A stretch of DNA of 64,000 nt, taken from Myxococcota bacterium. Its GTDB lineage: Bacteria; Myxococcota_A; UBA796; CAJQPC01. Under the pieces are notes generated by a model. That model worked only from the letters and a program-made list of their open reading frames with translations, ran no database searches and was not told where the DNA came from. Positions 9,417-62,942 of this stretch are shown here, one piece after another. The stretch's first letter is position 1. Each line of letters begins with the position of its first letter. The stretch is taken from assembly GCA_036229005.1 (NCBI GenBank), contig JAZAMN010000022.1:6572-70571 (forward strand), written 5' to 3'. The position numbers and the translations under genes were made by a program.

Positions 9417-10286
9417 GTGCTGCTGCTCGCTGTCCTCGCCTGCGCCGCAGAGCTCGAGCCGGTGTCGGGCTGGCCAGAGGCCGGGTGTGTGAGCCAACAC
9501 GCTCCGGTGACGGGACACAGCCTCGTCAGCTCCCAGACCGGGACCCTGGAGGGGCTGCAGGTGGGGCTGCTTGTGCCCATGGAGCCGGGCTGCTACCCGG
9601 CCGTGGTGATGGTGCCTCCGGGGATCGAGGCCGGGGTGGGCGCGCTGGACGAGTCCCCGGCGATGCACCTGGCGGCGTCGGGGGTGGTCGTGGCGGCCTA
9701 CGACCCCAGCGGGCGGGGGCTGAGCGCAGGGGTGGAGGACTACGGCGGGCCGGCGCACCGGGAGGATCTGGCGCAGGTGCTGCGGGTGGTGGCTGCGCGC
9801 GAGGATGTGGACCCCAGCCGCGTCTGGGTCTTGTCCCGGAGCTACGGAGTGGGCGTGTCGGCGGCCACACTCGCGGGGCTCACCCCCCAGGCTGCTGGGC
9901 TCATCGACCTGGAGGGACCGGCGCGGCTGCCCGAGGACCTGGAGCACGTGGACGACCAGGCCCGCCAGACGCTGGAGTCCGCGGCGACGGGGCCGGACTG
10001 GTACACGGAGCGCAGCGCGGCGGAGCACATTGGGCGGGTGCCGGGGCACTACCTGCGCATCCAGGCGCTCGCGGACCACGCCACCGGGGAGTGGCTGGGG
10101 CACGCGCTGACGCTGCTGAACGCGGCGTGGCAGGGGGAGGCCGCCAGCGTGAGGCTCAACGGGCAAGGGGGCGGGCCCTGGGAGTACGAGCAGGTGCAGG
10201 CGCAGGCGCTGGAGGGGCGGGTGAAGCTGGATGACGAGCGGGTGCACGCGCTGCTGCTGCAGGCGCTCTCCCAGGGGATAGACTGA
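9417..10286 (+). CDS. alpha/beta-hydrolase-like lipoprotein
   Basis: MLLLAVLACA lipobox. A nucleophile-elbow-like VLSRSYGVG sits after a beta-strand. The GTG start abuts the mscS stop (TGAGTG). Confidence 0.55.
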   Translation: MLLLAVLACAAELEPVSGWPEAGCVSQHAPVTGHSLVSSQTGTLEGLQVGLLVPMEPGCYPAVVMVPPGIEAGVGALDESPAMHLAASGVVVAAYDPSGRGLSAGVEDYGGPAHREDLAQVLRVVAAREDVDPSRVWVLSRSYGVGVSAATLAGLTPQAAGLIDLEGPARLPEDLEHVDDQARQTLESAATGPDWYTERSAAEHIGRVPGHYLRIQALADHATGEWLGHALTLLNAAWQGEAASVRLNGQGGGPWEYEQVQAQALEGRVKLDDERVHALLLQALSQGID

Positions 10287-14323: not shown

Positions 14324-14331
14324 CTGCCCTG

Positions 14332-14745
14332 ATGCTCTCCCTTGTTCTGCCCCTGCTCCTTGCCTGCAGAAGCCCCGAAGACACCGCGAGCGAAGGCTGC
14401 TCTTCCCCTGAAGTGGCCCGCACGAACTGGGCCCTTGGGCAGTGTCAGTGGTACGCGTGCTTCTATGGGGAGGGCGAGATGTTCGAGGGAGAGTCCTTTG
14501 ACCAGGAGCGCTGCATCCAGGACGAGCTGGTGCGTTTCGACCGGCTCTCGGAAGGCCTCTGCGTCGATGTCTGTGCGGTAGACGACATCAACGAGCGCTT
14601 CCTTGGCTACCACAGCGAGCTGGGTTGCGATCACCTGCCTGGCCCCAAGAGCTACGGCTTCTACGCCTGCGAAGAGACGCCCCCCTCCGAGCGCGAGGGC
14701 TACGAGGACTACATGGAGTGCGCGTGCTCGGGGTGCTGCGTGTGA
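14332..14745 (+). CDS. Cys-rich lipoprotein, paralog 1 (137 aa, ends CACSGCCV)
   Basis: MLSLVLPLLLACRSPED lipobox. 13 further Cys. Starts 8 nt after the upstream stop. Confidence 0.7.
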   Translation: MLSLVLPLLLACRSPEDTASEGCSSPEVARTNWALGQCQWYACFYGEGEMFEGESFDQERCIQDELVRFDRLSEGLCVDVCAVDDINERFLGYHSELGCDHLPGPKSYGFYACEETPPSEREGYEDYMECACSGCCV

Positions 14746-14803
14746 TGGGATTGGGGCTCCTGAGTCTGCCCATCACAGGCAAGGTCTTCTGCGAGGAGAC
14801 CTG

Positions 14804-15205
14804 ATGCTCTCCCTTGTCCTGCCCCTGCTCTTTGCCTGCAGAAGCCCCGAAGACACCGCAAGCGACGGCTGCTCTTCACCGGAGATGGCCCGCACGAACT
14901 GGGCCCTTGGGCAGTGTCAGTGGTACGAATGCCACTATGACCAGGACGGCGTGGCATTCGACCAAGAGCGCTGCATCGAAGACGAGCTCTTCAGCTACGA
15001 TCACTTGGCCGAAGGCCTCTGCATCGACACCTGCACGGTAGACGACATCAACGAACGCTTCCTTGGCTACCACGGAGAGCTGGGCTGCGATCACCGGCCA
15101 GGCCCCAGCAGCTACGGCTTCTACGCCTGCGAGGAGACGCCCCCCTCCAAGCGAGACGGCTACGAGGAGTACATGGAGTGCGAGTGCACGGGCTGCTGCG
15201 TGTGA
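14804..15205 (+). CDS. Cys-rich lipoprotein, paralog 2 (133 aa, ends CECTGCCV)
   Basis: MLSLVLPLLFACRSPED. Collinear with paralog 1, with all Cys positions conserved. The track ORF 14603..15205 includes a spurious 5' extension. Confidence 0.7.
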   Translation: MLSLVLPLLFACRSPEDTASDGCSSPEMARTNWALGQCQWYECHYDQDGVAFDQERCIEDELFSYDHLAEGLCIDTCTVDDINERFLGYHGELGCDHRPGPSSYGFYACEETPPSKRDGYEEYMECECTGCCV

Positions 15206-15362
15206 TGGGATGGGTGTGTAGGCCCCTGTAGTGCTTCACACCGACCGCAAACCGAGAAAACCGGATCCACCGAATCGAGTCGTCCTGCTCCCGGCTGCTC
15301 CGCGACGAGCGCAGGACAAGCCCAGCCTGACCTCGCTGGTGGAGGGGGTGCACAGAGTGAGA

Positions 15363-17498: not shown

Positions 17499-17990
17499 TC
17501 AAGAGCCGCTCTCCCCCATCCTGGGCCCGTACACGGGCAGCCCTCCGGCGTTCAGACGGTCGAACACCAGGCTGGTCTCCAGGTGGGCGACCTCTTCGCG
17601 GGTGGTGAGCTGATCCAGGGCGAGATCCCGCAGGTGGTGAGCGTCCCGGACGGCCACATGCAGCACGAAGTCGGCCTTGCCGGAGATGTGGAAGGCCTGC
17701 ACGACCTCGGCGAGCCGGCCCACGTGCTCCATGAAGGCGTCGAGCTGGTCCCGGCTGTGCTGGCGGAGCTGCACAAGCACCAGGGCCTGGAGACCGACCT
17801 GCGCGGCGTCGGGATCGAGCTCGGCGTGGAAGCCGGCCAGCGCGCCCTCGTCCACCAGGCGACGCACCCGTCCAAGGCAGGTGGAGGGGGCCAGGCCCAC
17901 CCGCGCGGCCAGCTCCTTGTTGGAGAGGCGGGCGTCGTCGCGGAGCTGGCGGAGGATCTCGAAGTCGATTCGATCCAGGGGCGTATTCAT
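17499..17990 (-). CDS. Lrp/AsnC family transcriptional regulator
   Basis: MNTPLDRIDFEILRQLRDDARLSNKELAARVGLAPSTCLGRVRRLVDEG (HTH) followed by a RAM/ACT-like domain. This is only the last 163 codons of track ORF 17499..19316; the rest is antisense junk. Confidence 0.9.
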   Translation of the reverse strand: MNTPLDRIDFEILRQLRDDARLSNKELAARVGLAPSTCLGRVRRLVDEGALAGFHAELDPDAAQVGLQALVLVQLRQHSRDQLDAFMEHVGRLAEVVQAFHISGKADFVLHVAVRDAHHLRDLALDQLTTREEVAHLETSLVFDRLNAGGLPVYGPRMGESGS

Positions 17991-19680: not shown

Positions 19681-20834
19681 CAGTAGAAGGCCATGGAGCT
19701 GATGCCCAGGGTGGAGCTGATGTAGCCCCCCTCAGCGGTCAGGTCAGAGCAGCTGTTGATGTCCACGAGCATGGCGCCGCCGGCCACGCTGTTGGTCCAG
19801 TCGTAGCCCACGGAGATCCAGGCCTCGCCCTTGTTGTTGAGCCAGGGGCCGGAGCTGTAGGGCAGCTCGCCGCCGAGCTGGGTCATGGTCTCGGCGTCAG
19901 CGTCCAGGCAGTAGATCTCGGTGCCGTAGCTGGGGGTGTAGACGGTCATCAGGGCCTTGCCGGCGTCGTTCATGACCATGCCGCCGATGTCGCCGGAGAC
20001 GTCGGACTCGGTCACGATGGGCTCGGAGAGCAGGCCCTCGGAGAGGCTGAGGGTGCGCAGGTCGCCGTCGGGGCTGCCGTACATGCCGGTCTGGACGAAC
20101 ACCACGTCGCTGTCCTGGGGGTGGGCGCTGATGCGGGGGTTGACGCCCACCTCGTGGCTGCCGACGATGGCCTCGGTGGCGCAGTCGATCTCCAGGACCT
20201 GGCCGGGGCCGGCGCTGGCGAAGGTCTCCTGGTCCAGGATCTGGAGGGCAAGGATCAGGCGGTCGCCGTCCTTGATCATCGCGGCGGCTTCAGGCAGGCC
20301 GTCGGCGTCGGCGTAGGCGCTCAGGTCGATGGCGCCCGCGGGGTTGCCCTCGGCGGAGAAGATGGCGACCTTGTCCACGCCGTACTGGCTGACGAAGATC
20401 TTGTCGTCGCAGAAGTAGGCGGCCTGGGGGTTGGAGCCCTCGGCCAGGGAGATCTCCTGGGGGTTGGACCAGTCGCCGATGTCGTAGATGCGCAGGTAGT
20501 CGAAGCCGTAGCGGCCGAGCTGCAGGACCTTGCCCTGGTCCACGGTGACCCAGGCGTCAGAGGCGATGTCGGCCACGTCGGTGGCGTTGCGGCTGTCCAG
20601 CGCGAAGGTGGTCAGGGCGCCCACCGAGTAGTCGGTGGTGGTGGCGATGGCCATGGTGTGCTCGGGGTCGGCGTCCGCGTCGGAGTCGGAGTCGGCGTCC
20701 GAGTCGGCGTCGGCGTCGGCGTCGGCGTCGGTGTCGGCGTCAGCCTCTTCGGTGTCGCCGGTCTCCTCCAGATCGGCGGCGGGGGGGCAGCCCAGCAGGA
20801 CGGCGAGGGACAGGGACAGGGCGGTGAGGGTCAT
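19680..20834 (-). CDS. surface lipoprotein with an acidic D/A/S/T linker and a probable beta-propeller body, btuB-linked
   Basis: MTLTALSLSLAVLLGCPP lipobox, then ETGDTEEADADTDADADADADSDADSDSDADADPEH, then ~330 aa of beta-rich sequence. The ATG overlaps the btuB stop (ATGA 20831-20834). The track ORF 19680..21716 has a spurious N-terminal extension. Confidence 0.75.
   Translation of the reverse strand: MTLTALSLSLAVLLGCPPAADLEETGDTEEADADTDADADADADSDADSDSDADADPEHTMAIATTTDYSVGALTTFALDSRNATDVADIASDAWVTVDQGKVLQLGRYGFDYLRIYDIGDWSNPQEISLAEGSNPQAAYFCDDKIFVSQYGVDKVAIFSAEGNPAGAIDLSAYADADGLPEAAAMIKDGDRLILALQILDQETFASAGPGQVLEIDCATEAIVGSHEVGVNPRISAHPQDSDVVFVQTGMYGSPDGDLRTLSLSEGLLSEPIVTESDVSGDIGGMVMNDAGKALMTVYTPSYGTEIYCLDADAETMTQLGGELPYSSGPWLNNKGEAWISVGYDWTNSVAGGAMLVDINSCSDLTAEGGYISSTLGISSMAFY
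20667..20745 (-). repeat. imperfect hexanucleotide tract (GTCGGC/GTCGGA)n encoding the (DA/DS)n linker
   Basis: Plus-strand 20703-20726 is four perfect consecutive GTCGGC units, flanked by single-base variants. Confidence 0.85.
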
Positions 20835-22864: not shown

Positions 22865-22954
22865 GTCCGGCCGGGGTCGGGGGGCACAGACAGAGGTCCA
22901 CCAAGGCGGTGGTTCCTGAGCCTGTCTGCATCCCCGCAGGCAAGTTCGTGGACG

Positions 22955-23160
22955 CACGCGCAGGCCGGTCTCCTGGCTCCTGGACCCTTGGGCTGGCCTT
23001 CCCGGAGCGCGCTCCAGTGGCAGTCAGCCAAGTCGCTCCCCGGGGGGAGCCGTCCAGTCACAGTGGCGGGGGCCGCGTCGGTTTCACACCGACTTCCCGT
23101 TTCACCCAGAGCGGACTCCGGGCACCTGCGCGTGGTTCAGACGTCAAAGAAGGTGGGCGT
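22955..23160 (-). promoter_or_regulatory. cobalamin (B12) riboswitch upstream of btuB
   Basis: The minus strand reads ...CAGGTGCCCGGAGTCCGCTCTGGGTGAAACGGGAAGTCGGTGTGAAACCGACGCGGCCCCCGCCACTGTGA...CAGGAGCCAGGAGACCGGCCTGC. This is the conserved GGGAAG..GGTG.GAA...GCGG.CCCGCCACTG core plus a B12 box (AGCCAGGAGACCGGCC). Confidence 0.88.
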
Positions 23161-32026: not shown

Positions 32027-32089
32027 GGGTGCAGGGGGAGTGGGGGGCCAAGGGGCCCAGAGAGTCGCCGCATCCTTCCCTCCGAAGGA

Positions 32090-32300
32090 CTGGGGTGATC
32101 GCAGAGGCCGGTCTCCTCGCTCCCGCTGATGAGTCTCGGGGACTCCTCGCGCCGCGCCTTCCCAGGGGAGTCCCCAGTGGCATGTGCGGTGCGATTCAGC
32201 GGTCAGAGTGGCGGGGGCCGCGCCGGTTCGCGGAGGCCCCCAGGGGGGCGCGCGTCCGGACTTCCCGTTTCATCCCCGAAGGGACACCTCTGCTGGGTCA
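32090..32300 (-). promoter_or_regulatory. cobalamin (B12) riboswitch upstream of the btuC-...-cobD operon
   Basis: The minus strand reads CAGAGGTGTCCCTTCGGGGATGAAACGGGAAGTCCGG...AACCGGCGCGGCCCCCGCCACTCTGACC...GGGAGCGAGGAGACCGGCCTCTGC, with a B12 box (AGCGAGGAGACCGGCC). Confidence 0.88.
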
Positions 32301-32349
32301 ATGAACTGGCGCCTGTCCTAGCGTGCGCTCCCCCCCCTCGCAAGCGCGC

Positions 32350-32931: not shown

Positions 32932-33480
32932 TCAGCCCCCCTTCTTGGGGTCGAAGATCATGCCGACCGTGATGCTGGTGTAGGGCGCCTTGGCCCCCGG
33001 CACGACCCCCATCTCCGGGGAGATGAAGAGGCGGTCCCCCGAGTCCAGCTCCCGCACGGCCCGGGCGCCGAAGCCCGCCTCCAGGATGGGCAGGACGATG
33101 TTCTCCTTGCCGTCCTCGGCCGCGTAGACAAAGCCCAGGGACAGGCAGGGGTAGAAGTTGACGTTGCGCCCCGGGTTCAGGTGGAACTGGTAGTCCAGCA
33201 CCGGGCCCCAGGCCTGCTCCACGTCGCGCTGGTTGCCCGAGATGGGGTTGGCCGGCGGGTTGACCATGTAGATGGCGCGCAGGCCGAAGGTGTGGCCGTT
33301 CTCCAGCTCGACCCCCATGGCGACCCCGGCGGTGGGGACCTGCCCCAAGCCTCCGCTGGGCACCGCGACCGAGGCGCGCGTGGCCATGTAGGTGGGCCGC
33401 GGCGGCGGGGCGTCCGGGGCGTCCGGGGTGTCGGCCGCGCTGGCGGTCTGGAGGGAGGCGAGGAGGATGGTGGTGAACAT
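32932..33480 (-). CDS. small outer-membrane beta-barrel-like protein, paralog A
   Basis: MFTTILLASLQTASA signal peptide. Collinear similarity with paralog B (e.g. FGLRAIYMVNPP vs LGLRAVYMHDIP; LFISPEMGVVPG vs LFIAPELGMVPS). AGGAG lies 6 nt upstream. Confidence 0.6.
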   Translation of the reverse strand: MFTTILLASLQTASAADTPDAPDAPPPRPTYMATRASVAVPSGGLGQVPTAGVAMGVELENGHTFGLRAIYMVNPPANPISGNQRDVEQAWGPVLDYQFHLNPGRNVNFYPCLSLGFVYAAEDGKENIVLPILEAGFGARAVRELDSGDRLFISPEMGVVPGAKAPYTSITVGMIFDPKKGG

Positions 33481-33596
33481 GGAATCTCCTGGTTCACCCC
33501 TTTGGAGTGCAGGGCCCGTGCCACCAACTCAAGTACCTGATTTCACAGGCGAGGACAGGCTGACCGTCTCGGCAGGCGGGCCGGCTGCGTCTCCTG

Positions 33597-33614
33597 CTGA
33601 CGCGGGCGCGTCAG
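33597..33614. promoter_or_regulatory. perfect palindrome CTGACGCG-GG-CGCGTCAG
   Basis: 8-bp arms with a 2-bp centre, in the divergent intergenic region just left of the 31-bp array. Confidence 0.5.
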
Positions 33615-33626
33615 GACGGTGCGGGG

Positions 33627-33750
33627 GGCATCCAACCCTGAACGCCCGCGGGATCCGGGCATCCCACCCTGAACGCCCGCGGGATCCGGGCATCCCACCT
33701 TGAACGCCCGCGGGATCCGGGCATCCCACCTTGAACGCCCGCCACTGGGC
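33627..33750 (+). repeat. left block: 4 tandem copies of a 31-bp unit GGCATCC(C/A)ACC(C/T)TGAACGCCCGCGGGATCCG
   Basis: Copies start at 33627, 33658, 33689 and 33720, exactly 31 bp apart. The fourth diverges after 33742. Confidence 0.95.
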
Positions 33751-33757
33751 TCCAGAC

Positions 33758-33912
33758 CGGGCGTTGAACCCCAGATGCCCCCGCAGACCGGGCGTTCGAC
33801 CCCAGATGCCCCGAACACGCGGGCGTTCGACCCCGGATGCCCCGAACACGCGGGCGTTCGACCCCGTATGCCCCCGCAGTCCGGGCGTTCGACCCCCGAT
33901 GCTACCTTCCCT
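33758..33912 (-). repeat. right block: 5 tandem copies of the related unit in inverted orientation (CGGGCGTTCGACCCCAGATGCCCCGAACACG)
   Basis: Copies start at 33758, 33789, 33820, 33851 and 33882, exactly 31 bp apart. The reverse complement shares the GGGCATC and GAACGCCCG cores with the left unit. Confidence 0.95.
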
Positions 33913-33928
33913 CCGCAAGGGAGCCCCC

Positions 33929-36328
33929 ATGGCAGACGACGCACTCCCCCCCGAGCTTGGCCGCTACGCCGTCCAGGACCTGCTGGGCTCCGGCGGAATG
34001 GGGCTGGTCTACCGCGTTCAGGACCCTCGCCTGGGGCGCGATGTGGCCGCCAAGGTCCTGCGCCCCGAGCACGCCGACAGCCCCGAGCGGGCGCGCTTTG
34101 TGGCCGAGGCGCAGATCACCGCGCAGCTCCGCCACCCCTCCATCGTCTCCGTCCACGAGCTCGGCGAGCTGGCCGACGGCCGCGCCTACTTCACCATGGA
34201 GGAGATCGAGGGCCGCACCATGGAGCAGACCCTGGAGCAGCTCCACCAGGCCAGCGACGCCGGCCACTGGGGCCGAAGCGAGGACGGCTGGACCTTCTCC
34301 CGGCTGATCGAGGCCTTCCGCCGCACCTGCGAGGCCGTGGCCTATGCCCACAGCCGCCGCGTGGTGCACCGGGACCTCAAACCCAGCAACGTGATGCTGG
34401 GCCGCTTCGGCGAGGTGCTGGTCATGGACTGGGGCCTGGCCAAGGTGCTGGACGAACAGGCCCCCGAGCCCCTGCGCACCGGGCGCAGCGATGAGAGCGC
34501 CCCCAGCACCGACACCCGGGCCGGCGCCCTGATGGGCACCCCCGCGTTCATGTCCCCCGAGCAGGCCCGCGGCGACTGGGCCCGGGTGGGCACCGCCAGC
34601 GACGTGTACGCCCTGGGCGCCATCCTCTACAACATCCTGCGCGGCCAGCCCCCCTACCTGGGCGACACCGGCAGCGTGATCGCCGCCCTGCTCCAGGGCG
34701 AGCTGGAGCCCCCCGACGCCCCCAGCGAGCACAGCCGCGGGCCCGTCCCCGCCGACCTGGCCGAGATCTGCCTGCGCGCGATGGCCCCCGACCCTCAGGC
34801 TCGCCACGCCGACGCCGCCGAGCTGGCCGCCGACGTCGCCGCCTGGCTGGACGGCTCCCGCCGCCGCGACACCGCCCGCACCCTGGTCCAGGAGGCCGCC
34901 CAGCACAACGAGGAGGCCGCCGAGCTCCACCAGCAGGCCGAGCGCCTGCGCACCGAGGCCTTCCGCCGCCTGGAGCACGTCGCCGAGCACGACCCCGTCG
35001 AGCTCAAGCTGGCCGGCTGGGCCCTGGAGGACCGCGCCCGCCGCCTGGAGCTGCAGGCCAACCTGGTCGCCCTGGAGGGCACCCGTACCCTGCAGACCGC
35101 GCTCTCCCTGGCGCCCGACCTGCCCGAAGCCCACGCCGGGCTGGCCAACTACTACCGCACCCGCCACGCCCGGGCCGAGGCCGAGCGCGACCCCGACGAG
35201 GCCGCGCTGTGGGAGGTCCTGCTCCGCGACCACGACCGCGGCGAGCACCGCGACTACCTGGAGGGCACCGGCGCCCTCACCCTGGTCACCGACCCGCCCA
35301 ACGCCCAGGCCGTGCTCTACCGCTTCGTCGAGCAGGACCGCCGCCTGGTCCCCGAGCGCGTCCGCTCCCTGGGCCGCACTCCCATCCACAAGCTCCCGCT
35401 GCAGGCCGGCGACTACCTGGTGTCCCTGCGGCGCCCCGGGTACGCCGAGCTGCGCTACCCCGTGTCCATCGGCCGCCTGGAGCACTGGGACGGCGTGCCC
35501 CCCGGCGCCACCCGCCCCGCCCCCATCACCCTGCTGCGCGAGGGCGTCCTGGACGACGACGAGCGCTACATCCCCGGAGGGTGGTTCCAGGCAGGCGGCG
35601 ACCCCGGCGCCCCCCACGCCCTCAGCGGCCAGCGCATCTGGGTCGACGACCGCGTCTTCAAGCGCTTCCCCGTGCGCAACCGGGAGTACCTCGCCTTCCT
35701 CAACGATCTCGTGGATCAGGGGCAGCCCGAGCTGGCCAAGCGGTATGGACCGCGCTTTGAGGGCTTTTTGCTCCTCAACCGCTCCCTGGACGGCCACTAC
35801 ACGCTGCGCACCGACATGACGCTCTTCTCCCAGCACCCCGACGCGCCCGTGGTCATGATCGACTGGCACGGGGCCAAGGCCTACGCCGACTGGGAGGCCG
35901 AGCGCACCGGCCTGCCCTGGGATCTGCCCGAGGAGATCGCCTGGGAGAAGGCCGCCCGCGGCGTCGACGGCCGCATCTACCCCTGGGGGAACTACCTGGA
36001 CCCCACCTGGTGCAACGTCCGCGACAGCCAGGTGGGCGCGCCGGGCCTGGCCCAGGTCTCCGAGCACCCCGTCGACGAGAGCGTCTACGGCCTGCGCGGC
36101 ATGGGCGGCAACACGATGGACTGGTGCCGGGACAGCTTCCGCGCCTCGGGCCCCCCCATCGCGGACGGGCGTTACACCCTGCTGGACAACCAGACCGGCC
36201 CCCGGGCCATCCGCGGCGGCCACTGGTACTCCGTGGACCAGCTCTCCCGCTGCGCCCACCGCTTCCGCCTGGAGCCCCAGATGCGCGCCTACATGATCGG
36301 ATTCCGCCTGGCGCGCACCCTGAACTGA
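33929..36328 (+). CDS. Ser/Thr protein kinase with a coiled-coil middle and a C-terminal FGE-sulfatase (SUMF1-like) domain
   Basis: Kinase motifs GSGGMGLVYR, VAAKVL, HRDLKPSNVM, DWGLA and GTPAFMSPEQ. C-terminal domain motifs RFPVRNREYLAFL, DWHGAKAYADW, LPEEIAWEKAARG, RGGHWY and GFRLAR. ATG 33929 is in frame with track ORF 33731..36328. Confidence 0.9.
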   Translation: MADDALPPELGRYAVQDLLGSGGMGLVYRVQDPRLGRDVAAKVLRPEHADSPERARFVAEAQITAQLRHPSIVSVHELGELADGRAYFTMEEIEGRTMEQTLEQLHQASDAGHWGRSEDGWTFSRLIEAFRRTCEAVAYAHSRRVVHRDLKPSNVMLGRFGEVLVMDWGLAKVLDEQAPEPLRTGRSDESAPSTDTRAGALMGTPAFMSPEQARGDWARVGTASDVYALGAILYNILRGQPPYLGDTGSVIAALLQGELEPPDAPSEHSRGPVPADLAEICLRAMAPDPQARHADAAELAADVAAWLDGSRRRDTARTLVQEAAQHNEEAAELHQQAERLRTEAFRRLEHVAEHDPVELKLAGWALEDRARRLELQANLVALEGTRTLQTALSLAPDLPEAHAGLANYYRTRHARAEAERDPDEAALWEVLLRDHDRGEHRDYLEGTGALTLVTDPPNAQAVLYRFVEQDRRLVPERVRSLGRTPIHKLPLQAGDYLVSLRRPGYAELRYPVSIGRLEHWDGVPPGATRPAPITLLREGVLDDDERYIPGGWFQAGGDPGAPHALSGQRIWVDDRVFKRFPVRNREYLAFLNDLVDQGQPELAKRYGPRFEGFLLLNRSLDGHYTLRTDMTLFSQHPDAPVVMIDWHGAKAYADWEAERTGLPWDLPEEIAWEKAARGVDGRIYPWGNYLDPTWCNVRDSQVGAPGLAQVSEHPVDESVYGLRGMGGNTMDWCRDSFRASGPPIADGRYTLLDNQTGPRAIRGGHWYSVDQLSRCAHRFRLEPQMRAYMIGFRLARTLN

Positions 36329-39342: not shown

Positions 39343-39385
39343 TCGCTCCCCCCGCCTGAGGGCCTCCCCGGGGGCCCGCACCCAG

Positions 39386-39410
39386 CAGGGACCTTCGGGT
39401 CCCTGTTGTC
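39386..39410 (+). terminator. stem-loop terminator candidate
   Basis: CAGGGACC-TTCG-GGTCCCTG followed by TTGTC, 44 nt after the lipoprotein stop. Confidence 0.45.
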
Positions 39411-39458
39411 GCTCTGGGGACGCGCCAGTTTGACCTCGCTGGCGGGCGCGGCTCTGCT

Positions 39459-42400
39459 ATGGTCCGCGCGAAAGGGAGCGTTGTGGTGGGAATCTCAGGT
39501 CTGCTGCCTGTCGTCTTGGGCTGCAGCCCCTCCCCAGAGACCCAAAGGGACTCCCGCGCGACCGTCCGGCAGAAGGATCTGGCGGACACCCAGGTCACCC
39601 TGCAGCCCACCGCGAGCGCCGCAAGCGACCGCTTCGGACGGGCCCTGGCCAGCGGGGACTTCAACGACGACAGCTACCCGGATCTGGTGGTCTCGGCGCC
39701 GGGACTGGGCAGCGGCGGGCTGCTCTACCTCTACGAGGGCACGGTCTCGGGCCTGGACCTGGTCACCGAGCACACCTTCTCCACCACGGGCTCGATCGGC
39801 CTGGGCTACGGCCTCTCCGCTGGCGGCGACGTGAACGGTGACGGCGTCGAGGATCTGGCGGCCACCGAGACAGGCGACAGCACACAGGAGCAGGTCTACC
39901 TCTTCCTGGGCTCCACCACCGCGGGGCTGGTCGCGGATCAGGCGATCCAACCTTCGGACTGGGTGTACGGGGACAGCTTCAAGGTGCCCGCCCTGGGCGC
40001 GGACCTGGACGGAGACGGCTACGGAGACCTGGCGGTGGGCGCCCTCACGGCGGACGCGACCTACACCGACCAGGGCGCGGTCTACGTGTACTACGGCAGC
40101 GCGACAGGGGTCGTCGCCGCCAGCGAGCTCAAGCTGACCGACCAGGCCAATCCCTGGACCAGCGCCTACTACGGGACCGCCGTGGCGATGGGCCCCGACT
40201 CGGACGGGGACGGCTACGACGAGCTCTACGTGGGCCGACCCTGGCTCGGCACCTCGGCGGTCTACATCTACAACGGCAGCACCACCGGGGTCAGCGCCAG
40301 CAGCTACGCGTCCCTGACCGGCAACGGGACCGCCGTCTCCCACGGCGGCTCCATCTCCTTCGCGGACATCGACGGGGACGGGCTCACCGACCTGCTGGTC
40401 GGGGATCAGAACGCCGGGAGCTACGGGTCCGTGGGCGGCGGCGGGCAGATCTACACCTACTTTGGCAGCGCCACGGGGTACTCGGACACCAACCACCAGA
40501 CCGCGGGCTCCTGCTACTACCGCTGCGACTACGCCGAGCACATCGCGGGGCTGGGAGACGTCGACGGGGACGGCTACGGCGACGCCCTCGCGTCCTACCT
40601 GTCCACCTCGATCGGCTCGTCGGGCTCCACGGCACCCAGCTTCTACCTGCACTACGGGACCGCCACCGGCCTGGCGCAGTCGGGCACCCTGCTGGACACC
40701 TCGGGCGGCAGCTTCGGCAACGCCTGGGCCAGCGAGGACTTTGACGGGGACGGCCTGATGGACCCGGCCCTGGGCTGGTTCGGGCAGGCCTCGTGGAGCG
40801 CCACGGATCCGGGCTGGGTGAACCTCTACACCGGCAGCAACCGCACCTGGTACCCGGACCTGGACGGCGACGGCTACGGCGACGAGAGCGCGGGCGTGGA
40901 GAGCGCGACGCCGCCCTCCGGCTACATCGAGGACGGCACGGACTGCGATGACAGCGACGCCACGACCTACCCCGGCGCCACCGAGGTCGTCGCCGACGGG
41001 GTGGACAACAACTGCGACGGCTACGAGAAGTGCAAGGAGGACCGCGACCAGGACGGCTACGCCGAGTACCGGGGGGAGGTCACCTCCTCCGACCTGGACT
41101 GCACGGACCCCGGAGAGGGCGACAGCAGCATGCCCCGCACCGACTGCGACGACGGGGACGCCAGCATCAACCCGGGGGCGACCGATCATCCCGCGGACGG
41201 CATCGATCAGGACTGCGATGGCCAGGAGCTCTGCTACGAGGACCTGGACGGCGACGGCTTCGGGACCGACGCCGGTACCACCCTGAGCTCCGCCGATCTG
41301 GACTGCGAAGACAGCGGCGAGTCCGGCACCGACGACGACTGCGACGACAGCGACGCCAGCATCCACCCGGACGCGACCGAGGGCTTCGCCGACGGCGTGG
41401 ACCAGGACTGCGACGGGATCGAGTTCTGCTACACCGACGCCGACGGGGACGGCCACAGCGCCCTGCTGGAGAGCAGCGACGACGACTGCGACGACGCGGG
41501 GGAGTCCTACACGGCCAGCGGCAGCTTGGACTGCGACGACAGCGACGCCAGCGTGTACCCGGGCGCGGCCGAGACCGTTGGCGACGGGATCGACCAGGAC
41601 TGCGACGACGCGGACGCCTGCTATGTCGACCTGGACGGCGACGGCTACGGGGACGGGCTGGTGGACAGCAACTCCGCGGCCTGCTCGGACAGCGGCGAGG
41701 CGCTGGTGGACGGCGACTGTGATGACGCCGACGCCAGCGTGAACCCCGGCGCGACCGAGGCCGCCGCGGACGGGGTCGACCAGGACTGCGATGGCTTCGA
41801 GCTGTGCTACCTGGACAGCGACGGGGACGGCTACGCAGCGGGGGACACCGTGGCGGACAGCGATCTGGCCTGCGGGAGCGCCGGCAGCGCCACCGTCGCG
41901 GACCAGGACTGCGACGACAGCGACGCCGCCGTGAACCCGGCCGCCGCGGAGATCGCCGGCGATGGGGTCGACCAGGACTGCGACGGCACCGAGGACTGCT
42001 ACGACGACGCCGACGGGGACGGGGTCGCCGGCAGCACCCTGATCCAGGCCGAGGATCTGAGCTGCGGGGCCTACAGCACCACCGCCGGGGCCGACTGCGA
42101 CGACAGCGACAGCGACGCCTTCCCCGGGGCCACCGAGGCGGTCGCCGACGGCGTGGACCAGGACTGCGACGGCGGCGACACCTGCTACGCGGACGGCGAC
42201 GGCGACGGCTTCGTGGACGGCACGGTGACCAGCGCGGATCTGGACTGCACCGACAGCGGAGAGGCCGCCAGCAGCTCCACCACCGACTGCGACGACGCCG
42301 ACGCCTCGGTGTACCCCGGCGCCCCCGAGGCGGTGGGAGACGGCGTGGACTCCGACTGCGACAGCGCCGAGCTCTGCTACGTGGACGCGGACGGCGACGG

Positions 42401-43529
42401 CTACCGCGTGAGCGACACGGTCTCGGACGCCGCGCTGGACTGCAGCAGCGCCGGGAGCGCGGACGCCGCGGCCCCTGACGGGGACTGCGATGACCTCGCC
42501 GCCGCCATCCACCCTGGCGCTACGGAGGTCCTCGCCGATGGGACGGACTCCGACTGCGATGGGCTGGAGCTCTGCTGGGTGGACGATGATGGGGACGGAT
42601 TCCAGGCGGGCGATCAGACCCTCTCGGCCTCCCTGGACTGCAGCGACGCAGGGATCGCCGGGAGCGCCGCGGGCGCCGGAGACTGCGACGACACGGACCC
42701 CGCCATCCACCCGGGCGCCACCGAGGGCATCGGGGACGGCGTGGACTCGGACTGCGACGGCGGCGAGCTCTGCTACGTGGACGCCGACAGCGACGGCTAC
42801 CACGACGGGATCACCGCGGCGGGCCCCTTGGGCTGCGGCGATGCGGGCCTGCTCAGCGGCAGCGCGCCAGGGGACGACTGCGACGACAGCGACCCCGCCT
42901 TCCACCCCGGCGCCGACGAGTCGGACTGCACCGATCCCAACGACTACAACTGCGATGGCTCGGTCCAGTACGCCGACGACGACAGCGACGGCTGGCCCGC
43001 CTGCACCGAGTGCGACGACCAGGATCCCGACGTCCACCCCGACGCCGACGAGCTCTGCGACGGGATCGACAACGACTGCGATGGCACCGTCGACAACGAC
43101 GACGCCCTGGACGCCGGGGTCTGGTACGAGGACGGGGACGGGGATGGCTTCGGGCTGGACGGGTACACCACCCAGGCCTGCTTGGTGCCCTCCGGCTACT
43201 CCGAGCTGCCTGGCGACTGCGAGGACACCGACTCCACGATCCACCCTGACGCCCTCGAGATCTGCGGCGACGGCGTGGACAACGACTGCGACGGTGCGGG
43301 GGGCCCCGACGACGACGAGGACGGCGACACCCTGAGCTGGACCCAGGAGCAGGACCTGGGCACCGACCCCTGCGACCCCGACACGGACGACGACGGACGC
43401 AGCGACGCCGACGACAGGCGGCCGGTGGGCTGTGAAGGCTGCGCCAGCTCGGGATCCGGCGCGCCAGGGGGCTGGATGGCCGGCGTGGTGCTGCTCGGCG
43501 TGCTGCTCAGACGCCGCCGCCGGGCCTGA
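39459..43529 (+). CDS. giant surface protein: lipoprotein signal, FG-GAP/VCBS-type repeats, ~18-20 Cys-rich MopE-type putative metal-binding repeats, TSP3-like Asp motifs and a MYXO-CTERM-like tail
   Basis: Signal GLLPVVLGCSP. FG-GAP-like repeats (GDFNDDSYPDLVVSAPG, GDVNGDGVEDLA, DLDGDGYGDLAVGA...). Repeated DCDD.D..[IV][HNY]PGA.E...DG[VI]D.DCDG.E.CY.D.DGDG units span aa ~470-1290. The C-terminus is GCEGCASSGSGAPGGWMAGVVLLGVLLRRRRRA. Confidence 0.9.
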   Translation: MVRAKGSVVVGISGLLPVVLGCSPSPETQRDSRATVRQKDLADTQVTLQPTASAASDRFGRALASGDFNDDSYPDLVVSAPGLGSGGLLYLYEGTVSGLDLVTEHTFSTTGSIGLGYGLSAGGDVNGDGVEDLAATETGDSTQEQVYLFLGSTTAGLVADQAIQPSDWVYGDSFKVPALGADLDGDGYGDLAVGALTADATYTDQGAVYVYYGSATGVVAASELKLTDQANPWTSAYYGTAVAMGPDSDGDGYDELYVGRPWLGTSAVYIYNGSTTGVSASSYASLTGNGTAVSHGGSISFADIDGDGLTDLLVGDQNAGSYGSVGGGGQIYTYFGSATGYSDTNHQTAGSCYYRCDYAEHIAGLGDVDGDGYGDALASYLSTSIGSSGSTAPSFYLHYGTATGLAQSGTLLDTSGGSFGNAWASEDFDGDGLMDPALGWFGQASWSATDPGWVNLYTGSNRTWYPDLDGDGYGDESAGVESATPPSGYIEDGTDCDDSDATTYPGATEVVADGVDNNCDGYEKCKEDRDQDGYAEYRGEVTSSDLDCTDPGEGDSSMPRTDCDDGDASINPGATDHPADGIDQDCDGQELCYEDLDGDGFGTDAGTTLSSADLDCEDSGESGTDDDCDDSDASIHPDATEGFADGVDQDCDGIEFCYTDADGDGHSALLESSDDDCDDAGESYTASGSLDCDDSDASVYPGAAETVGDGIDQDCDDADACYVDLDGDGYGDGLVDSNSAACSDSGEALVDGDCDDADASVNPGATEAAADGVDQDCDGFELCYLDSDGDGYAAGDTVADSDLACGSAGSATVADQDCDDSDAAVNPAAAEIAGDGVDQDCDGTEDCYDDADGDGVAGSTLIQAEDLSCGAYSTTAGADCDDSDSDAFPGATEAVADGVDQDCDGGDTCYADGDGDGFVDGTVTSADLDCTDSGEAASSSTTDCDDADASVYPGAPEAVGDGVDSDCDSAELCYVDADGDGYRVSDTVSDAALDCSSAGSADAAAPDGDCDDLAAAIHPGATEVLADGTDSDCDGLELCWVDDDGDGFQAGDQTLSASLDCSDAGIAGSAAGAGDCDDTDPAIHPGATEGIGDGVDSDCDGGELCYVDADSDGYHDGITAAGPLGCGDAGLLSGSAPGDDCDDSDPAFHPGADESDCTDPNDYNCDGSVQYADDDSDGWPACTECDDQDPDVHPDADELCDGIDNDCDGTVDNDDALDAGVWYEDGDGDGFGLDGYTTQACLVPSGYSELPGDCEDTDSTIHPDALEICGDGVDNDCDGAGGPDDDEDGDTLSWTQEQDLGTDPCDPDTDDDGRSDADDRRPVGCEGCASSGSGAPGGWMAGVVLLGVLLRRRRRA
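40850..43330 (+). repeat. intragenic array of ~140-150-bp coding repeats (MopE-type Cys repeats)
   Basis: gactgcgacgac...gaccaggactgcgacgg recurs at DNA level throughout this span. Confidence 0.85.
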
Positions 43530-55762: not shown

Positions 55763-57352
55763 ATGTTGCTGTGGTGGGTGTTGGCTTGCGGGCGGGTGAC
55801 CTCGCCGATGGAGACGGGTGTAGAGGACTCCGAGGCGGAGACCGGGGACAGCGGTGGGGACGGGATCTGCTCACCGGATCACAGCCTCACCTCGACCCAG
55901 ACCCGGACGAGCACGGCGATCGTGCAGGGAGAGGAAGCGGGGGCTGGGCTGGCTTTTCTGGCGATCCCCTTCACCGAGCCGCCTCTGGGAGCGCTCCGGC
56001 TGGCGCCTCCGCAGCCCTACGCCTGCCGCGACGGCGAGGTCATCTCGGCGCAGACCTTCGGCCCCACCTGTCCGCAGCTCGACGACGAGGGCGCGCTCAC
56101 GGGCAGCGAGGACTGCCTGCAGCTCAACGTGTTCACGCCGGACACCGCGCTGAGCGGCGCGCGCCCCGTGATGGTGTTCATCCACGGTGGCGGGATGGTG
56201 CAAGGAAGCGCCAGCCGCGAGGAGAACGGGGTGGCCCTCTTTGACGGGGCGCTGCTGGCGGAGCGCACGGGGGCGATCGTGGTGACGCTCCAGTACCGGC
56301 TGGGGGCGCTGGGCTTCCTGAACCACCCGGAGCTGCGGGCTGTGGGGCTGGGCGGGAACCTGGGCACGCAGGACCAGCTCCAGGGGCTGGCGTGGGTGCA
56401 GGAGAACGCGGCGGCCTTTGGCGGAGACCCGGCGCAGGTGATGGTCTTTGGGGAGAGCGCGGGGGCGCTGAGCATCTGCGGGCTCTACACCAGCCCCTAC
56501 GCCGAGGGGCTCTTCTCGGCGGCGGTCATCCAGTCCGGGGGCTGTCAGACGGCCACCTTGGCGGAGGCGGAGGCCGAGGGGGAGGCCTACGCTGCGGAGC
56601 TGGGCTGTGAGGACGCGGCGTGCCTGCAGGAGGCCCCGCTGGAGGACCTGGTGGCGCTGAGCACTGCGCCCATCTCGGAGCTGGGCGTGCCGGGGACCGG
56701 GGGCTTCGGGCTGAGCATTGATGGGGACGTCCTGCCCCAGGACCCCTGGGATGCCCTGGCGGCGGGCGAGCACGTCGGGGTGCCGCTGATCGTGGGCCAC
56801 AACCGCGAGGAGACGGGCAGCTACAGCCCCACCCTGAGCGAGGCCGAGTACGAGACCCTGCTCAAGGGGCTCTTCCTGACCCGCTGGGAGGAGGCGGCGG
56901 CCCTCTGGTCGGTGGAGGAGTACGGCAGCGCCCGCAGCGCCTGGATCGCGCTGAGCACCGACGCCTCCTTTGGCTGCCCCGCCCAGCGCATGGCCGACCT
57001 GGTGAGCGAGAGCGGCACGCCTGCCTACCGCTACCTGTTCACCCACACCCCCGATACCGCCCTGTCCCGCGTTCGCGGCGCCTACCACGGCCTGGAGCTG
57101 CTCTACCTCTTCCAGCGGCTGGAGCCCATGGAAGCCGCCGGGCTCTACGAGGGCAACACCGACGACGAGGCCGTGGAGGCGCTGATGCGCACCCTCTGGC
57201 TGGCGCACGCGCAGGGCGAGGACCTGCAGGCTGACGGCGTCGCCTGGCCCGTGACCGACGACACGCAGCCCTACCTGGAGCTGGCGGCCGAGCCGGCGGT
57301 GGGGACCGGGTGGCATGCGGAGGGGTGTGGGTTTCTGGGGGAGGTGTTCTGA
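55763..57352 (+). CDS. carboxylesterase type B family lipoprotein
   Basis: MLLWWVLACG lipobox preceded by AGGAGGG. EDCLQLNVFTP, VFIHGGG and the nucleophile elbow FGESAGA. Confidence 0.88.
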   Translation: MLLWWVLACGRVTSPMETGVEDSEAETGDSGGDGICSPDHSLTSTQTRTSTAIVQGEEAGAGLAFLAIPFTEPPLGALRLAPPQPYACRDGEVISAQTFGPTCPQLDDEGALTGSEDCLQLNVFTPDTALSGARPVMVFIHGGGMVQGSASREENGVALFDGALLAERTGAIVVTLQYRLGALGFLNHPELRAVGLGGNLGTQDQLQGLAWVQENAAAFGGDPAQVMVFGESAGALSICGLYTSPYAEGLFSAAVIQSGGCQTATLAEAEAEGEAYAAELGCEDAACLQEAPLEDLVALSTAPISELGVPGTGGFGLSIDGDVLPQDPWDALAAGEHVGVPLIVGHNREETGSYSPTLSEAEYETLLKGLFLTRWEEAAALWSVEEYGSARSAWIALSTDASFGCPAQRMADLVSESGTPAYRYLFTHTPDTALSRVRGAYHGLELLYLFQRLEPMEAAGLYEGNTDDEAVEALMRTLWLAHAQGEDLQADGVAWPVTDDTQPYLELAAEPAVGTGWHAEGCGFLGEVF

Positions 57353-57359
57353 GGGGGGC

Positions 57360-57629
57360 TCAGAGCGATTCCAGCGCGAGAGAGAGCTTGTCGGCGAGGC
57401 TCCAGCGCAGGCCGGCGGAGTAGAGGCTCCCTGCGAGGCTGGGGCGGCGGAAGACGGTGATGACGGCGCGGCCATCGTGGACCACCACGACGCCACGCAG
57501 GTGGACACGGACCTGACCGGGCTTGGCCCGCAGGGGTTCGCCGGAGGCCACGCAGGCGCGGACCTCGGCCAGGGAGATGTTGCGCTCGTGCATTCGCTGG
57601 CGGGCGTGGAGGGAGAGAGACAGGGACAT
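57360..57629 (-). CDS. DUF4258-like small protein (putative toxin-fold)
   Basis: LSLHARQRMHERNISLAEV pattern. 89 aa. Confidence 0.55.
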   Translation of the reverse strand: MSLSLSLHARQRMHERNISLAEVRACVASGEPLRAKPGQVRVHLRGVVVVHDGRAVITVFRRPSLAGSLYSAGLRWSLADKLSLALESL

Positions 57630-57684
57630 CGGCGGGCTCCGGGGACAGGGGGAGAACGCGGGGACCGAAGCCCCCGCAGCGAGC

Positions 57685-57885
57685 TCAGCGCTTGCCGCCG
57701 CCGCCCTTGGTGCTGCCCTTTCCGGACTTGGCGCCCCCCTTTCCAGGCTTGGCGCCTCCCTTTCCGCTGTTGCTGGCCGCGGCCTTCGACGCGCGCGCCT
57801 TGAACCCGGAGTTCTTGCCGCTCTTGTCGGCGTGGCTCTGGATCCGGCTCGCGGCGGGCTGGGTCATCGGGGTCTTCTTGCTCAT
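57685..57885 (-). CDS. small basic Gly/Lys-rich protein (SMP/KGG-like)
   Basis: MSKKTPMTQPAASRIQSHADKSGKNSG..., then GKGGAKPGKGGAKSGKGSTKGGGGKR. 66 aa. Confidence 0.5.
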   Translation of the reverse strand: MSKKTPMTQPAASRIQSHADKSGKNSGFKARASKAAASNSGKGGAKPGKGGAKSGKGSTKGGGGKR

Positions 57886-58056
57886 GTGGACTCTCCAGTT
57901 GGGGTTCTGTCAGCGAGCTGACACCCTTGGAATCACACGGGCCAAAGCTGGGTTTTCATTGTTTCCCAGAACAGCGGAGGGTCCCCCTCGAACGCCGACT
58001 CCAGACAAGACAGCCACCCCGGAGGCTGGCTGCGCTCGCCTGGACGGGGGGCCGGG

Positions 58057-58656
58057 TCAGGTGTCTCTGGGGTCCAGCCGAAGGGCCCCCAGCACCTCTG
58101 CGCTCCCCTGCCCTCCCAAGGCTTCCTGCAGGAGCGCAATGGCCGGAGCGGCAGACTGGTCCGGGGTCCTCAGTGCCCACAGCGTGCTGCGCTCCCCTGG
58201 CTGAGGGAGCTCGCGCTCAAAGGACTGCCCGGCATTCAAGCGTTGATGGCCCAAGCGCTGCACGCGGCCGCCATCATCGGTCACGATCAGGTGGTAGTGC
58301 CCGGGCTGAGGAGCTGTCACCACGGCCATTGGGCCAGGGTCTGACTCCAGGAGTTGGAGCAGCTCCACGGGCGCCGCCTCGTCGCTCGCCAGGGCGAAGG
58401 TCCCGGCGGGGGCGTCCAGGAGCACAGCGCGCCCCTGCTCCAGCAGGGTCTGCCAACCCGCGACGAAGCTCGCCCAAGGCGCTCCCCGGGCTGCGAGCCC
58501 AGCGTCACGGCGTGCGTCTCGCTCCGCTTGCAGGATCCCATCCAGGAGCAGGGGAAGCTGGGGGTCCCGGCAGCGGATCATCCACTCGGTGACGCGGCGG
58601 CGCTCAGGGGCCGGGAGCTCTCCCCGGACCCACTGAACGAGGGTCTGTTCGGTCAT
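58057..58656 (-). CDS. hypothetical protein, N-terminus reminiscent of anti-sigma factors
   Basis: MTEQTLVQWVRGELPAPERRRVTEWMIRC resembles the LxxYLDGELxxxERxxVExHL pattern but lacks the Zn ligands. The ATG overlaps the upstream stop by 4 nt. Confidence 0.55.
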   Translation of the reverse strand: MTEQTLVQWVRGELPAPERRRVTEWMIRCRDPQLPLLLDGILQAERDARRDAGLAARGAPWASFVAGWQTLLEQGRAVLLDAPAGTFALASDEAAPVELLQLLESDPGPMAVVTAPQPGHYHLIVTDDGGRVQRLGHQRLNAGQSFERELPQPGERSTLWALRTPDQSAAPAIALLQEALGGQGSAEVLGALRLDPRDT

Positions 58657-59246: not shown

Positions 59247-59303
59247 GTCGCCCCTTTAGGCCGAGTCCTGGCCCGGCTGATCCGTGTTTCCCAGAACGCG
59301 CCC

Positions 59304-61007: not shown

Positions 61008-61099
61008 GCTTCGAAGCACACTCTTCCCGAGTCGAGCGCGAATCCTACGGGCAGGCGCGTCCCTGCGTCGATTACAGCGCCCTACAGCCGCGGGCGGCC

Positions 61100-62754: not shown

Positions 62755-62847
62755 CCTCGCCAAGGCGGCTACGGGGTCTGAGTGAGCGCCCAACCGAGGC
62801 CACGGCCCCCCAATGAGCGGCGTTCTGAGGCTACGCCTGCTCGGTGA
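62755..62847 (-). repeat. left block of a second 31-bp repeat array: 3 copies in inverted orientation
   Basis: Units at 62755, 62786 and 62817, each ending (A/G/C)(A/G)TGA. For example, GCGCCCAACCGAGGCCACGGCCCCCCAATGA matches the reverse complement of the right-block unit at 23/31 positions. Confidence 0.8.
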
Positions 62848-62942
62848 GCGATTCGGCCACCGATCTGGCCCTGCGGGGCCCCAAATGCCCCCCATACGGG
62901 CCCGGATCGGGCTGAATCGGGCTGGATCGGTGGACAAATCGA

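Follow-up and report, generated by a model that had tools for sequence, protein, structure and literature searches.

In a 64-kb stretch of DNA from a Myxococcota bacterium (contig JAZAMN010000022.1; hereafter the window, meaning the whole stretch that was analysed; GC content 71%), the divergent region between the gene of a small secreted protein and a Ser/Thr protein kinase gene is occupied by an array of 31-bp repeats at 33626-33902, hereafter family 1. This array is composed of two inverted arms around a short centre and is very probably a lineage-specific inserted foldback array that is one member of a class. The genome sequence that we read amounts to ~87 kb, namely, the window and ~22.6 kb of another scaffold that is apparently from the same genome. 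The array and the genes on its two sides are listed below.

32932-33480, minus strand: gene of a 182-aa secreted protein for which a Pfam search gave no family (called an "OMP-like" gene in an earlier sequence-only reading of this DNA)
33626-33741, plus strand: left arm of family 1, four head-to-tail 31-bp units starting at 33626, 33657, 33688, and 33719
33742-33757, no strand: unique centre of 16 bp, CCACTGGGCTCCAGAC, with the small dyad CTGG-GCT-CCAG
33758-33902, minus strand: right arm of family 1, five inverted units starting at 33758, 33789, 33820, 33851, and 33882
33929-36328, plus strand: gene of a Ser/Thr protein kinase fused to an FGE-sulfatase domain (Pfam)

Both blocks were recovered by Tandem Repeats Finder at a period of 31 bp (left: 33626-33742, 3.8 copies, 97% matches; right: 33753-33902, 4.8 copies, 87% matches). 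The left-arm units have the order GGGCATC, 7-nt spacer, GAACGCCCG, and 8-nt spacer, and those of the right arm, when read on the plus strand, have the order CGGGCGTTC, 7-nt spacer, GATGCCC, and 8-nt spacer. In the right arm the boxes are constant and the 8-nt spacer is present in unrelated versions (GTCTGCGG, CGTGTTCG, and GACTGCGG on the box strand). The complementarity between the two arms is 71-76%. When the core GGGCATC-N7-GAACGCCCG was searched with up to two mismatches, the window had nine matches (four on the plus and five on the minus strand); shuffled sequences had a mean of 0.23 and never reached nine. An assembly artefact can be dismissed, as the array is contained in three independent assemblies, namely, the window and two ENA marine metagenome scaffolds (L001 and L002, which share 98.2-99.1% identity with the window over 20 kb).

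Much of what the sequence-only reading had described is consistent with these results. The two blocks of four and five copies with exact 31-bp steps were confirmed in their unit starts and spacing, the match of about 21-22 of 31 positions between a unit and the reverse complement of the other arm compares with 21-23 of 31 for the best unit pairs, and the distance of 26 nt to the kinase ATG (33929) is correct. The centre had been given as 7 bp, but it is 16 bp (33742-33757), because the fourth left unit is truncated after its second box, GAACGCCCG.

To place the array in its evolutionary context, we compared the control region with those of related loci. The features of this region outside the array are as follows.

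33508-33523, minus strand: sigma-54 type promoter of the 182-aa gene, TGGCAC-GGGCC-CTGCA
33585-33614, no strand: putative operator, consisting of CTGCGTC (33585-33591) and the palindrome CTGACGCG-GG-CGCGTCAG (33597-33614)
33903-33928, plus strand: ancestral kinase-proximal segment, with a -10-like box TACCTT (33903-33908) and the ribosome-binding site (RBS) AAGGGAG (33917-33923)

Homologues of the 182-aa protein form 11 clusters with 61-69% identity, and five homologue loci cover the intergenic region (L004, L006, L012, L143, and L144). The divergent kinase gene is kept in four of these five, which are all those with a contig long enough to show it, and a sigma-54 activator gene is also kept nearby in L004 and L006. 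The intergenic spacer of the five relatives is ~160 bp long and contains no 31-bp repeat. Kept in both the relatives and the window are the RBS and the sigma-54 promoter of the small gene (TGGCAC-N5-(C/G)TGCA), with the -24 and -12 elements conserved in all relatives compared, and the motif GCGTC-N9-GACGC-N3/4-GCGTC, which corresponds to the palindrome region. A TA(G/C)ACT box (TAGACT or TACACT) follows 11-12 nt past this motif in the relatives. Its equivalent in the window is TACCTT, and exactly between the palindrome plus 11 nt and TACCTT, the window has 278 bp (33625-33902). At the two junctions (flanks ...GGTGCGG and TACCTTC...), nothing is duplicated or deleted relative to the relatives, and there is no direct repeat. 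The family-1 units do not resemble the flanking sequence either. These clean junctions, together with units unlike their flanks, therefore indicate that the array arrived as foreign DNA rather than by local growth. Judged from this comparison, in which empty sites were observed in distant relatives only, the array appears to have been inserted after the lineage split from its known relatives.

This finding changes the interpretation of the control region. The sequence-only reading had regarded the array as a control element of the gene pair resembling an upstream activating sequence (UAS) or iterons, and had mentioned the palindrome, correctly placed at 33597-33614 with a length of 18 bp, as a mere flanking feature. 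The former view does not agree with the five orthologous loci, in which the array is absent and the gene pair, promoter, and palindrome are kept; because it is absent where the sigma-54 promoter is conserved, the array is not the UAS of this promoter. The latter underestimated the palindrome, which is a conserved regulatory element across the five loci. A UAS is kept with its promoter at ~80-150 bp upstream, and this description applies to the palindrome, located ~84 bp upstream of the sigma-54 -24 element, and not to the array. The operator at 33585-33614 is ancestral and lies outside the insertion, and it is likely an enhancer-binding-protein site.

A second array with the same architecture was identified in the right part of the window.

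62764-63057, no strand: second foldback array (family 2), 294 bp, identified by inverted-repeat search and Tandem Repeats Finder

Tandem Repeats Finder reported a 31-bp array at 62943-63058 with a unit unrelated to that of family 1. The right arm of this element (62943-63057) has 3.7 direct units, and its left arm (62764-62850) has three degenerate inverted units on the other strand in exact 31-bp phase; the latter segment is 70% complementary to 62971-63057. The centre is partly palindromic and includes a 10-bp repeat. The units carry the boxes CGCTCAYTG and CGTAGCC, and both outer ends of the element read CGTAGCCGCC. The element lies between convergent gene ends (stop codons at 62630 and 63073), and a possible but doubtful CGCCA direct repeat flanks it at a distance of one base on either side (62758-62762 and 63059-63063).

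Of the two loci at which family 2 was found, the other is in a paralogous kinase locus on a different scaffold (L147; ENA ERZ23498654 scaffold_42), which is from the same sample as L001. With a GC content of 71.5% and a tetranucleotide correlation of r = 0.995 with the window, L147 is as close to the window as L001, and by this compositional measure it is almost certainly from the same genome as the array. At the edge of the stretch read (L147:37-122), there are three 31-bp units of the form CGCTCAYTG, N6, C(C/G)GTAGCC, and N8, of which the last ends with CGTAGCCGCC again. These units are located ~150 bp upstream of a gene for a 305-aa protein.

The similarity between the family-1 and family-2 sequences is not significant (best 16/31; P = 0.32). 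However, the two families share a common grammar, in which a 9-nt box, a 6-7-nt spacer, a 7-nt box, and an 8-9-nt spacer add up to 31, and the 7-nt box is outermost at every arm end (CGGGCGTTC/GATGCCC in family 1 and CGCTCAYTG/CGTAGCC in family 2). Terminal inverted repeats, as in miniature inverted-repeat transposable elements (MITEs), are found in both (GGGCATC.../...GATGC in family 1 and GGCGGCTACG.../...CGTAGCCGCC in family 2), and the element size in the class is about 280-300 bp. In an autocorrelation of the window at non-triplet lags of 20-49, lag 31 was the only signal, and it came from exactly four blocks, namely, the two arms at each of the two loci. The same analysis found no non-triplet periodicity in ~70 kb from relatives, and in unrelated DNA from bacteria and viruses (1.07 Mb), it found eight loci with various periods that were never 31. 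The class has no promoter preference, because one array is located between convergent gene ends and the box family occurs on another scaffold. The sequence-only reading had named membership in a known dispersed family of repetitive extragenic palindromes (REPs) or MITEs without positional preference as the observation that would speak against it; the lack of promoter preference was observed, and the match to a known family was not.

Sequence conservation within the units is concentrated in the boxes. Between the family-1 arms, the matches form two uninterrupted runs of 7 and 9 positions (P about 2e-4 for random mismatch placement). Among the 14 left-arm units of the three strains, 6 of the 15 spacer positions are variable vs. 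1 of the 16 box positions (P = 0.03), and among the 10 family-2 units, conservation clusters in the two boxes (P = 0.00025). In both families the boxes are kept and the spacers drift; therefore, the boxes are probably phased docking sites of a sequence-specific protein. The impression of multi-site binding in the sequence-only reading agrees with this pattern, since conserved boxes and free spacers are what phased protein-binding sites would look like. The predicted spacing is probably one docking site per three helical turns.

The two arms differ in how they vary among strains. Both L001 and L002 have five left units, compared with four in the window, and their left arms have 5-9 substitutions per ~120-150 bp relative to the window. 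For comparison, the 549-bp small gene differs at 1-3 positions and the kinase gene at 3-7 positions within its first 1000 bp. The 187 bp at 33742-33928, which include the centre, the right arm, and the kinase leader, have no difference among the three strains, and non-coding DNA near the array differs by 2-8%. The left arm thus expands, contracts, and mutates fast, and the right arm is static. With head-to-tail units and a copy number that differs between strains (four vs. five), the array is also a minisatellite or variable-number tandem repeat in the descriptive sense. The changes by whole units presumably occurred through slippage or unequal recombination. The invariant kinase-proximal arm may have acquired a role in kinase expression or may be a plain haplotype block. 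In L002, a separate cluster of ~10 substitutions relative to both the window and L001 is located at 9930-9960, although the DNA is otherwise 98-99% identical; these positions correspond to window 33520-33550, immediately upstream of the -24 element of the sigma-54 promoter.

Database and literature searches provided no known counterpart, in agreement with the sequence-only reading, which had not recognised the array as a described element. For the array, the best Rfam 15 hits had E-values of about 8-10, far below the gathering score, and none reached the threshold; blastn found no match in plasmids and phages. The family-1 tandem pattern had no match in the JGI metagenomes, and the family-2 junction pattern had one chance match there, in low-GC coding DNA. 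In viral contigs, neither tandem pattern was found, and the single-unit pattern had 14 single chance matches. The single-unit pattern, which has 16 specified bases, matched at least 116 stretches in a scan of a genome collection, and those among the matches listed are single chance ones from unrelated phyla. In the literature, we found no description of 31-bp inverted tandem arrays, bacterial foldback elements, or REPs in Myxococcota.

Several established types of element were considered and rejected. The array is not a clustered regularly interspaced short palindromic repeat (CRISPR) array, as its units are contiguous, the variable segments are only 7 and 8 nt, and there are no unique spacers; the view that it is non-coding and not a CRISPR is supported. 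No Cas domain was found among the flanking genes and the other main open reading frames (ORFs) of the window (the gene calls of L001 span 22.9-43.4 kb). Plasmid or phage iterons do not agree with the lack of an initiator gene, the chromosomal housekeeping context, and the lack of similar plasmid or phage sequences. Ends of the DDE type were rejected because TG...CA with a 5-bp duplication was not found. The units are not sigma-54 promoters: they contain GGGCAT-N5-CTTGA, which is similar to TGGCAC-N5-TTGCA but lacks the essential GC and has the wrong orientation. A CsrA sponge was rejected because the right arm does not conserve the GGA motifs. An origin from a tRNA was considered, as GCTCACTGG is similar to a D-loop, but neither ARAGORN nor Rfam found anything in the arrays.

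The interpretation that we tentatively favour, at somewhat less than an even chance, is that the array is a species-specific foldback repeat element with the boxes acting as phased protein-docking sites. A foldback element is consistent with these arrays because of the clean insertion, the symmetric ends, the similar size, the presence in divergent, convergent, and upstream contexts, the restriction to one species, and the conserved phased boxes. According to this proposal, a small non-autonomous foldback element would have inserted cleanly into the kinase control region. Its arms would be arrays of docking sites, and a protein would assemble on both ends. Mu, Tn7, hAT, and eukaryotic Foldback elements are examples of such multi-site assembly. 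The ends of the IS607 family are a further precedent (PMC6188088). Because the elements are dispersed regardless of gene orientation, this protein would more likely be a recombinase, a transposase, or another element-specific factor than a kinase regulator. After insertion, the arms would behave as a minisatellite. The host could experience two side effects, as the kinase core promoter would now be 278-309 bp from the ancestral operator and a hairpin-prone sequence would have been placed in the divergent control region. Both the mobility and the identity of the binding protein are what we infer from this pattern. A broader proposal, which we consider doubtful, is that these arrays represent a new class of bacterial foldback elements, namely, ~300-bp non-coding palindromes with arms of two-box 31-bp tandem units, with several families per genome, that are moved or maintained by a protein measuring three helical turns per protomer. 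Such a protein could be a new multi-site transposase or recombinase or a DNA-wrapping chromatin protein.

Several observations weigh against the foldback-element interpretation. Family-1 units were found at a single locus in the combined sequence of the window, the ~22.6 kb of the other scaffold, and ~100 kb of related-species loci, and the at least 116 chance stretches make the genome-collection scan uninformative on further copies in the source genome. No transposase, integrase, recombinase, or REP-associated tyrosine transposase (RAYT) gene was seen among the window proteins scanned. A target-site duplication is absent at the family-1 locus, and family 2 has only the doubtful offset CGCCA. 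The two families are dissimilar; therefore, the one mobilising protein would have to be replaced by two. The conservation of the boxes also has a structural alternative. The whole array folds as a long interrupted hairpin (z = -7.6 as DNA and -6.5 as RNA), with the dyad CTGG-GCT-CCAG at its tip in the predicted folds, the boxes as paired stems between the arms, and the spacers as internal loops. Unpaired loops may simply mutate faster, and six of the seven variable positions in the left-arm units of the three strains are transitions. The short intra-arm hairpins that had been suggested from the sequence were not supported, as 3-unit stretches of both arms on both strands fold no better than shuffled sequences (z from -0.6 to +1.3).

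Among the other explanations, the one that survives best, although we consider it unlikely, is a host regulatory array. Here, the 9-10 phased boxes would bind an oligomeric host regulator (Lrp/AsnC-type or another wrapping protein) on one face of the DNA and affect expression of the kinase gene and/or the sigma-54-dependent operon, with the response tuned by the copy number. Conserved boxes with free spacers would be expected in this case, and the exact 31-bp step is three helical turns, which agrees with the sites of the Lrp family that are 2-3 turns apart with wrapping of the DNA (PMC2995911). Also in favour are the kinase-proximal arm, which is identical in the three strains when neighbouring non-coding DNA differs by 2-8%, and the presence of an AsnC/Lrp-type gene in the window (~17499-17990). 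However, the array is absent from the five orthologous loci with the rest of the control region kept, arrays of the same architecture are also found where two genes converge and in front of an unrelated gene, the conserved palindrome bears no relation to the boxes, and no lineage-specific DNA-binding gene is nearby. The units also have no clear 13-15-bp dyad symmetry, unlike the sites of Lrp dimers. Inverted similarity between the two boxes is limited to GGGC/GCCC, and the two family-1 arms have no consistent dyad in common.

Somewhat less likely still is a neutral palindromic minisatellite, which would have grown by slippage duplication, gained an inverted copy by template switching at the small dyad, and drifted without function or mobility; its conserved boxes would be stems protected in a transient foldback. 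The copy-number difference between strains, the elevated substitution rate of the left arm, the excess of transitions, and the pairing of boxes and looping of spacers in the predicted hairpin are all consistent with this explanation, and random bacterial DNA does contain non-triplet tandem arrays, although at a low rate (about 8 loci per 1.07 Mb). On the other hand, no in-situ seed is visible, because nothing in the flanking ancestral sequence is homologous to the units, and unit length, layout, polarity, and overall size are common to two unrelated box families. Local slippage cannot produce the second genomic site of family 2 with the same terminal sequence.

We consider a REP-type cluster improbable. 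In this explanation, extragenic palindromes would have been multiplied in tandem, as in bacterial interspersed mosaic elements (BIMEs), and mobilised by a RAYT (Y1) transposase. The extragenic location and the dispersed family agree with it, and for GTAG REPs, head-tail tandems and larger clusters have been described, often between convergent genes (PMC3733652). It was retained at this level because GTAG is present in every family-2 unit and such tandem GTAG-REP clusters are known. However, neither a GTAG nor a CGTC tag is found in the family-1 units, save for a GTAG by chance at a junction; the arms of either family fold no better than shuffled sequences (z about 0); the palindrome of one family-2 unit is not kept in the others; and neither a further family-1 unit nor a RAYT gene was seen in the window. 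REPs, REPINs, and BIMEs in the strict sense can be rejected, as the units are without a stable stem-loop.

A structured RNA is very improbable. The array would be part of the kinase leader or an independent transcript and form a long hairpin, such as a stability or processing element. The strong predicted RNA fold of the whole region is in line with this, and transcription may cover part of the array, because the interval from the last unit to the kinase RBS is too short to hold a promoter. However, this fold is a trivial consequence of the inverted arms, and the same architecture is found in contexts that are not leaders. There is no Rfam match, relatives lack the array, and the spacers, which remain unpaired, have no compensatory changes. 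Finally, it is barely credible that each unit junction is an alternative-sigma promoter with GAAC (9-nt box) and CATC (7-nt box), 16 nt apart, as the -35 and -10 elements of an extracytoplasmic function (ECF) promoter: GAAC-N16-CATC is found at every unit junction of both arms and presumably resembles the ECF consensus, but each arm would fire toward the centre across the other arm, the motif is absent from family 2, and there is no sigma-70-type promoter match in 33300-34100.

The genes surrounding the array provide additional context. The 182-aa gene is the first of a two-gene unit, with a second product of 193 aa that has no Pfam family, upstream of the following element.

32089-32306, minus strand: cobalamin riboswitch, before a btuCDF-like transporter and cobalamin salvage genes

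To the right of the kinase gene, genes for a CarboxypepD_reg protein and a sigma-54 enhancer-binding protein are on the minus strand. The remaining genes of the window are housekeeping (pyruvate-dehydrogenase-type, seryl-tRNA synthetase, tRNAs, and others). TGGCAC-N6-TGCA has a single match in the 64-kb window, at 33508-33523 (0.18 expected), and a scan of 33300-34100 for sigma-70 promoters and terminators had no match. From the sequence comparisons, the sigma-54 promoter, the GCGTC/GACGC/GCGTC palindrome, the activator, and the kinase look like a conserved activator/kinase/sigma-54 operon module. At 33911-33923, the GGGAG of the kinase RBS pairs with CUCC over a GCAAG loop, and the relatives have an equivalent hairpin over GGAG. 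This predicted hairpin may control translation of the kinase.

Some other features of the window were also observed. The AsnC/Lrp-type regulator gene at ~17499-17990 is on the minus strand and divergent from a Cys/Met pyridoxal phosphate (PLP) enzyme gene, as in L004. Its protein class binds sites three helical turns apart, and nothing ties this gene to the arrays. A second cobalamin riboswitch is found at 22946-23144 (minus strand) before a TonB-dependent receptor gene. A 460-bp tandem duplication at 14328-15211 (1.9 copies, 83% identical) probably represents two paralogous small genes, because the unit starts like a lipoprotein signal peptide. At 42285-42804, 198-bp coding repeats (2.6 copies, 70%; GAC/GGC-rich) are part of a giant FG-GAP/MopE-type gene (39360-43529). 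ARAGORN called a 97-nt tRNA-His at 20621-20717, which is probably a false positive, because Rfam does not support it and it overlaps a TCGGCG hexamer repeat (20662-20741). Beside family 2, the ORF at 63073-63999 (minus strand) has a strong coding signal (GC content at third codon positions, GC3, of 0.94), and no homologue was found at E <= 1e-20 among 5.8 billion proteins, sister strains included. In sample ERZ23498711, the genes for an S8 peptidase, a 197-aa protein, and a 199-aa protein (window ~57200-61300) are not part of the 201-kb scaffold but of a separate 4-kb contig (L146), where a DUF4258 gene adjoins them. The window may vary among strains in its right part.

These arrays, if they do form a class, would add a new architecture to the small repeat elements of bacteria, such as REP/BIME, MITE, enterobacterial repetitive intergenic consensus (ERIC), and BOX. 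The exact 31-bp ruler that is common to unrelated sequences points to a protein with subunits that each read three helical turns. At the family-1 locus, the insertion lies between a conserved operator and the core promoter of a Ser/Thr kinase gene beside a sigma-54 activator and a sigma-54-dependent operon; the strains with four and five units are therefore a natural experiment on the rewiring of a signalling module by such insertions. For annotation, these results are a warning that a striking phased array in a promoter region is not necessarily a regulatory site, as the conserved element here is the plain 18-bp palindrome alongside.

Known systems resemble these arrays to different extents. 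A rep or par gene adjoins the iterons and centromere repeats of plasmids; a typical iteron period is 11 or 17-22 bp, and F sopC has longer units. Plasmid iterons, F sopC, and R1 parC are similar to the array in having tandem protein-binding units, sometimes in two blocks, but they differ in their plasmid context and their rep or par gene, neither of which is found at the array. Lrp sites are usually AT-rich and conserved with the regulated gene, and the pap regulatory region has two sets of sites. Operator arrays of the Lrp family (PMC2995911) also have sites three helical turns apart in a divergent control region; however, their sites are 13-15-bp dyads, whereas the array here is missing in relatives and its class is not promoter-specific. 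GTAG REPs and BIMEs (PMC3733652) are likewise extragenic, dispersed, and species-restricted, and their REPs are sometimes reiterated head-to-tail. REPs are nevertheless defined by a stable stem-loop in each unit, which the units of both families lack, and BIMEs mostly alternate in orientation rather than forming two inverted blocks.

The closest similarities are with transposable elements. The "BrickBuilt" MITE is said to have one direct array with a 23-bp period, flanked by ordinary terminal inverted repeats, whereas the arms themselves are tandem arrays here. This element of Porphyromonas gingivalis is similarly small, non-coding, and intergenic, and combines inverted repeats with a copy-variable tandem repeat (PMC4596501). 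The ends of Mu, Tn7, and hAT/Hermes carry several phased transposase-binding repeats. The ends of the IS607 family also have several phased transposase-binding repeats, with no terminal inverted repeats or target duplications (PMC6188088). All of these transposon ends share with the array directly repeated and helically phased motifs that are inverted between ends, but their motifs are ~10-22 bp apart on elements that carry genes, whereas the array has a 31-bp step, two boxes per unit, and nothing between the ends. Foldback (FB) elements are eukaryotic, kilobase-sized, and have a known partner transposase. The array differs from them in being bacterial, 280-300 bp long, and made of a strict two-box 31-bp unit, with a mobility that we only infer, but it shares with them the long inverted arms of short tandem subrepeats, the unequal or variable arm lengths, the short central loop, and copies that are mostly non-coding.

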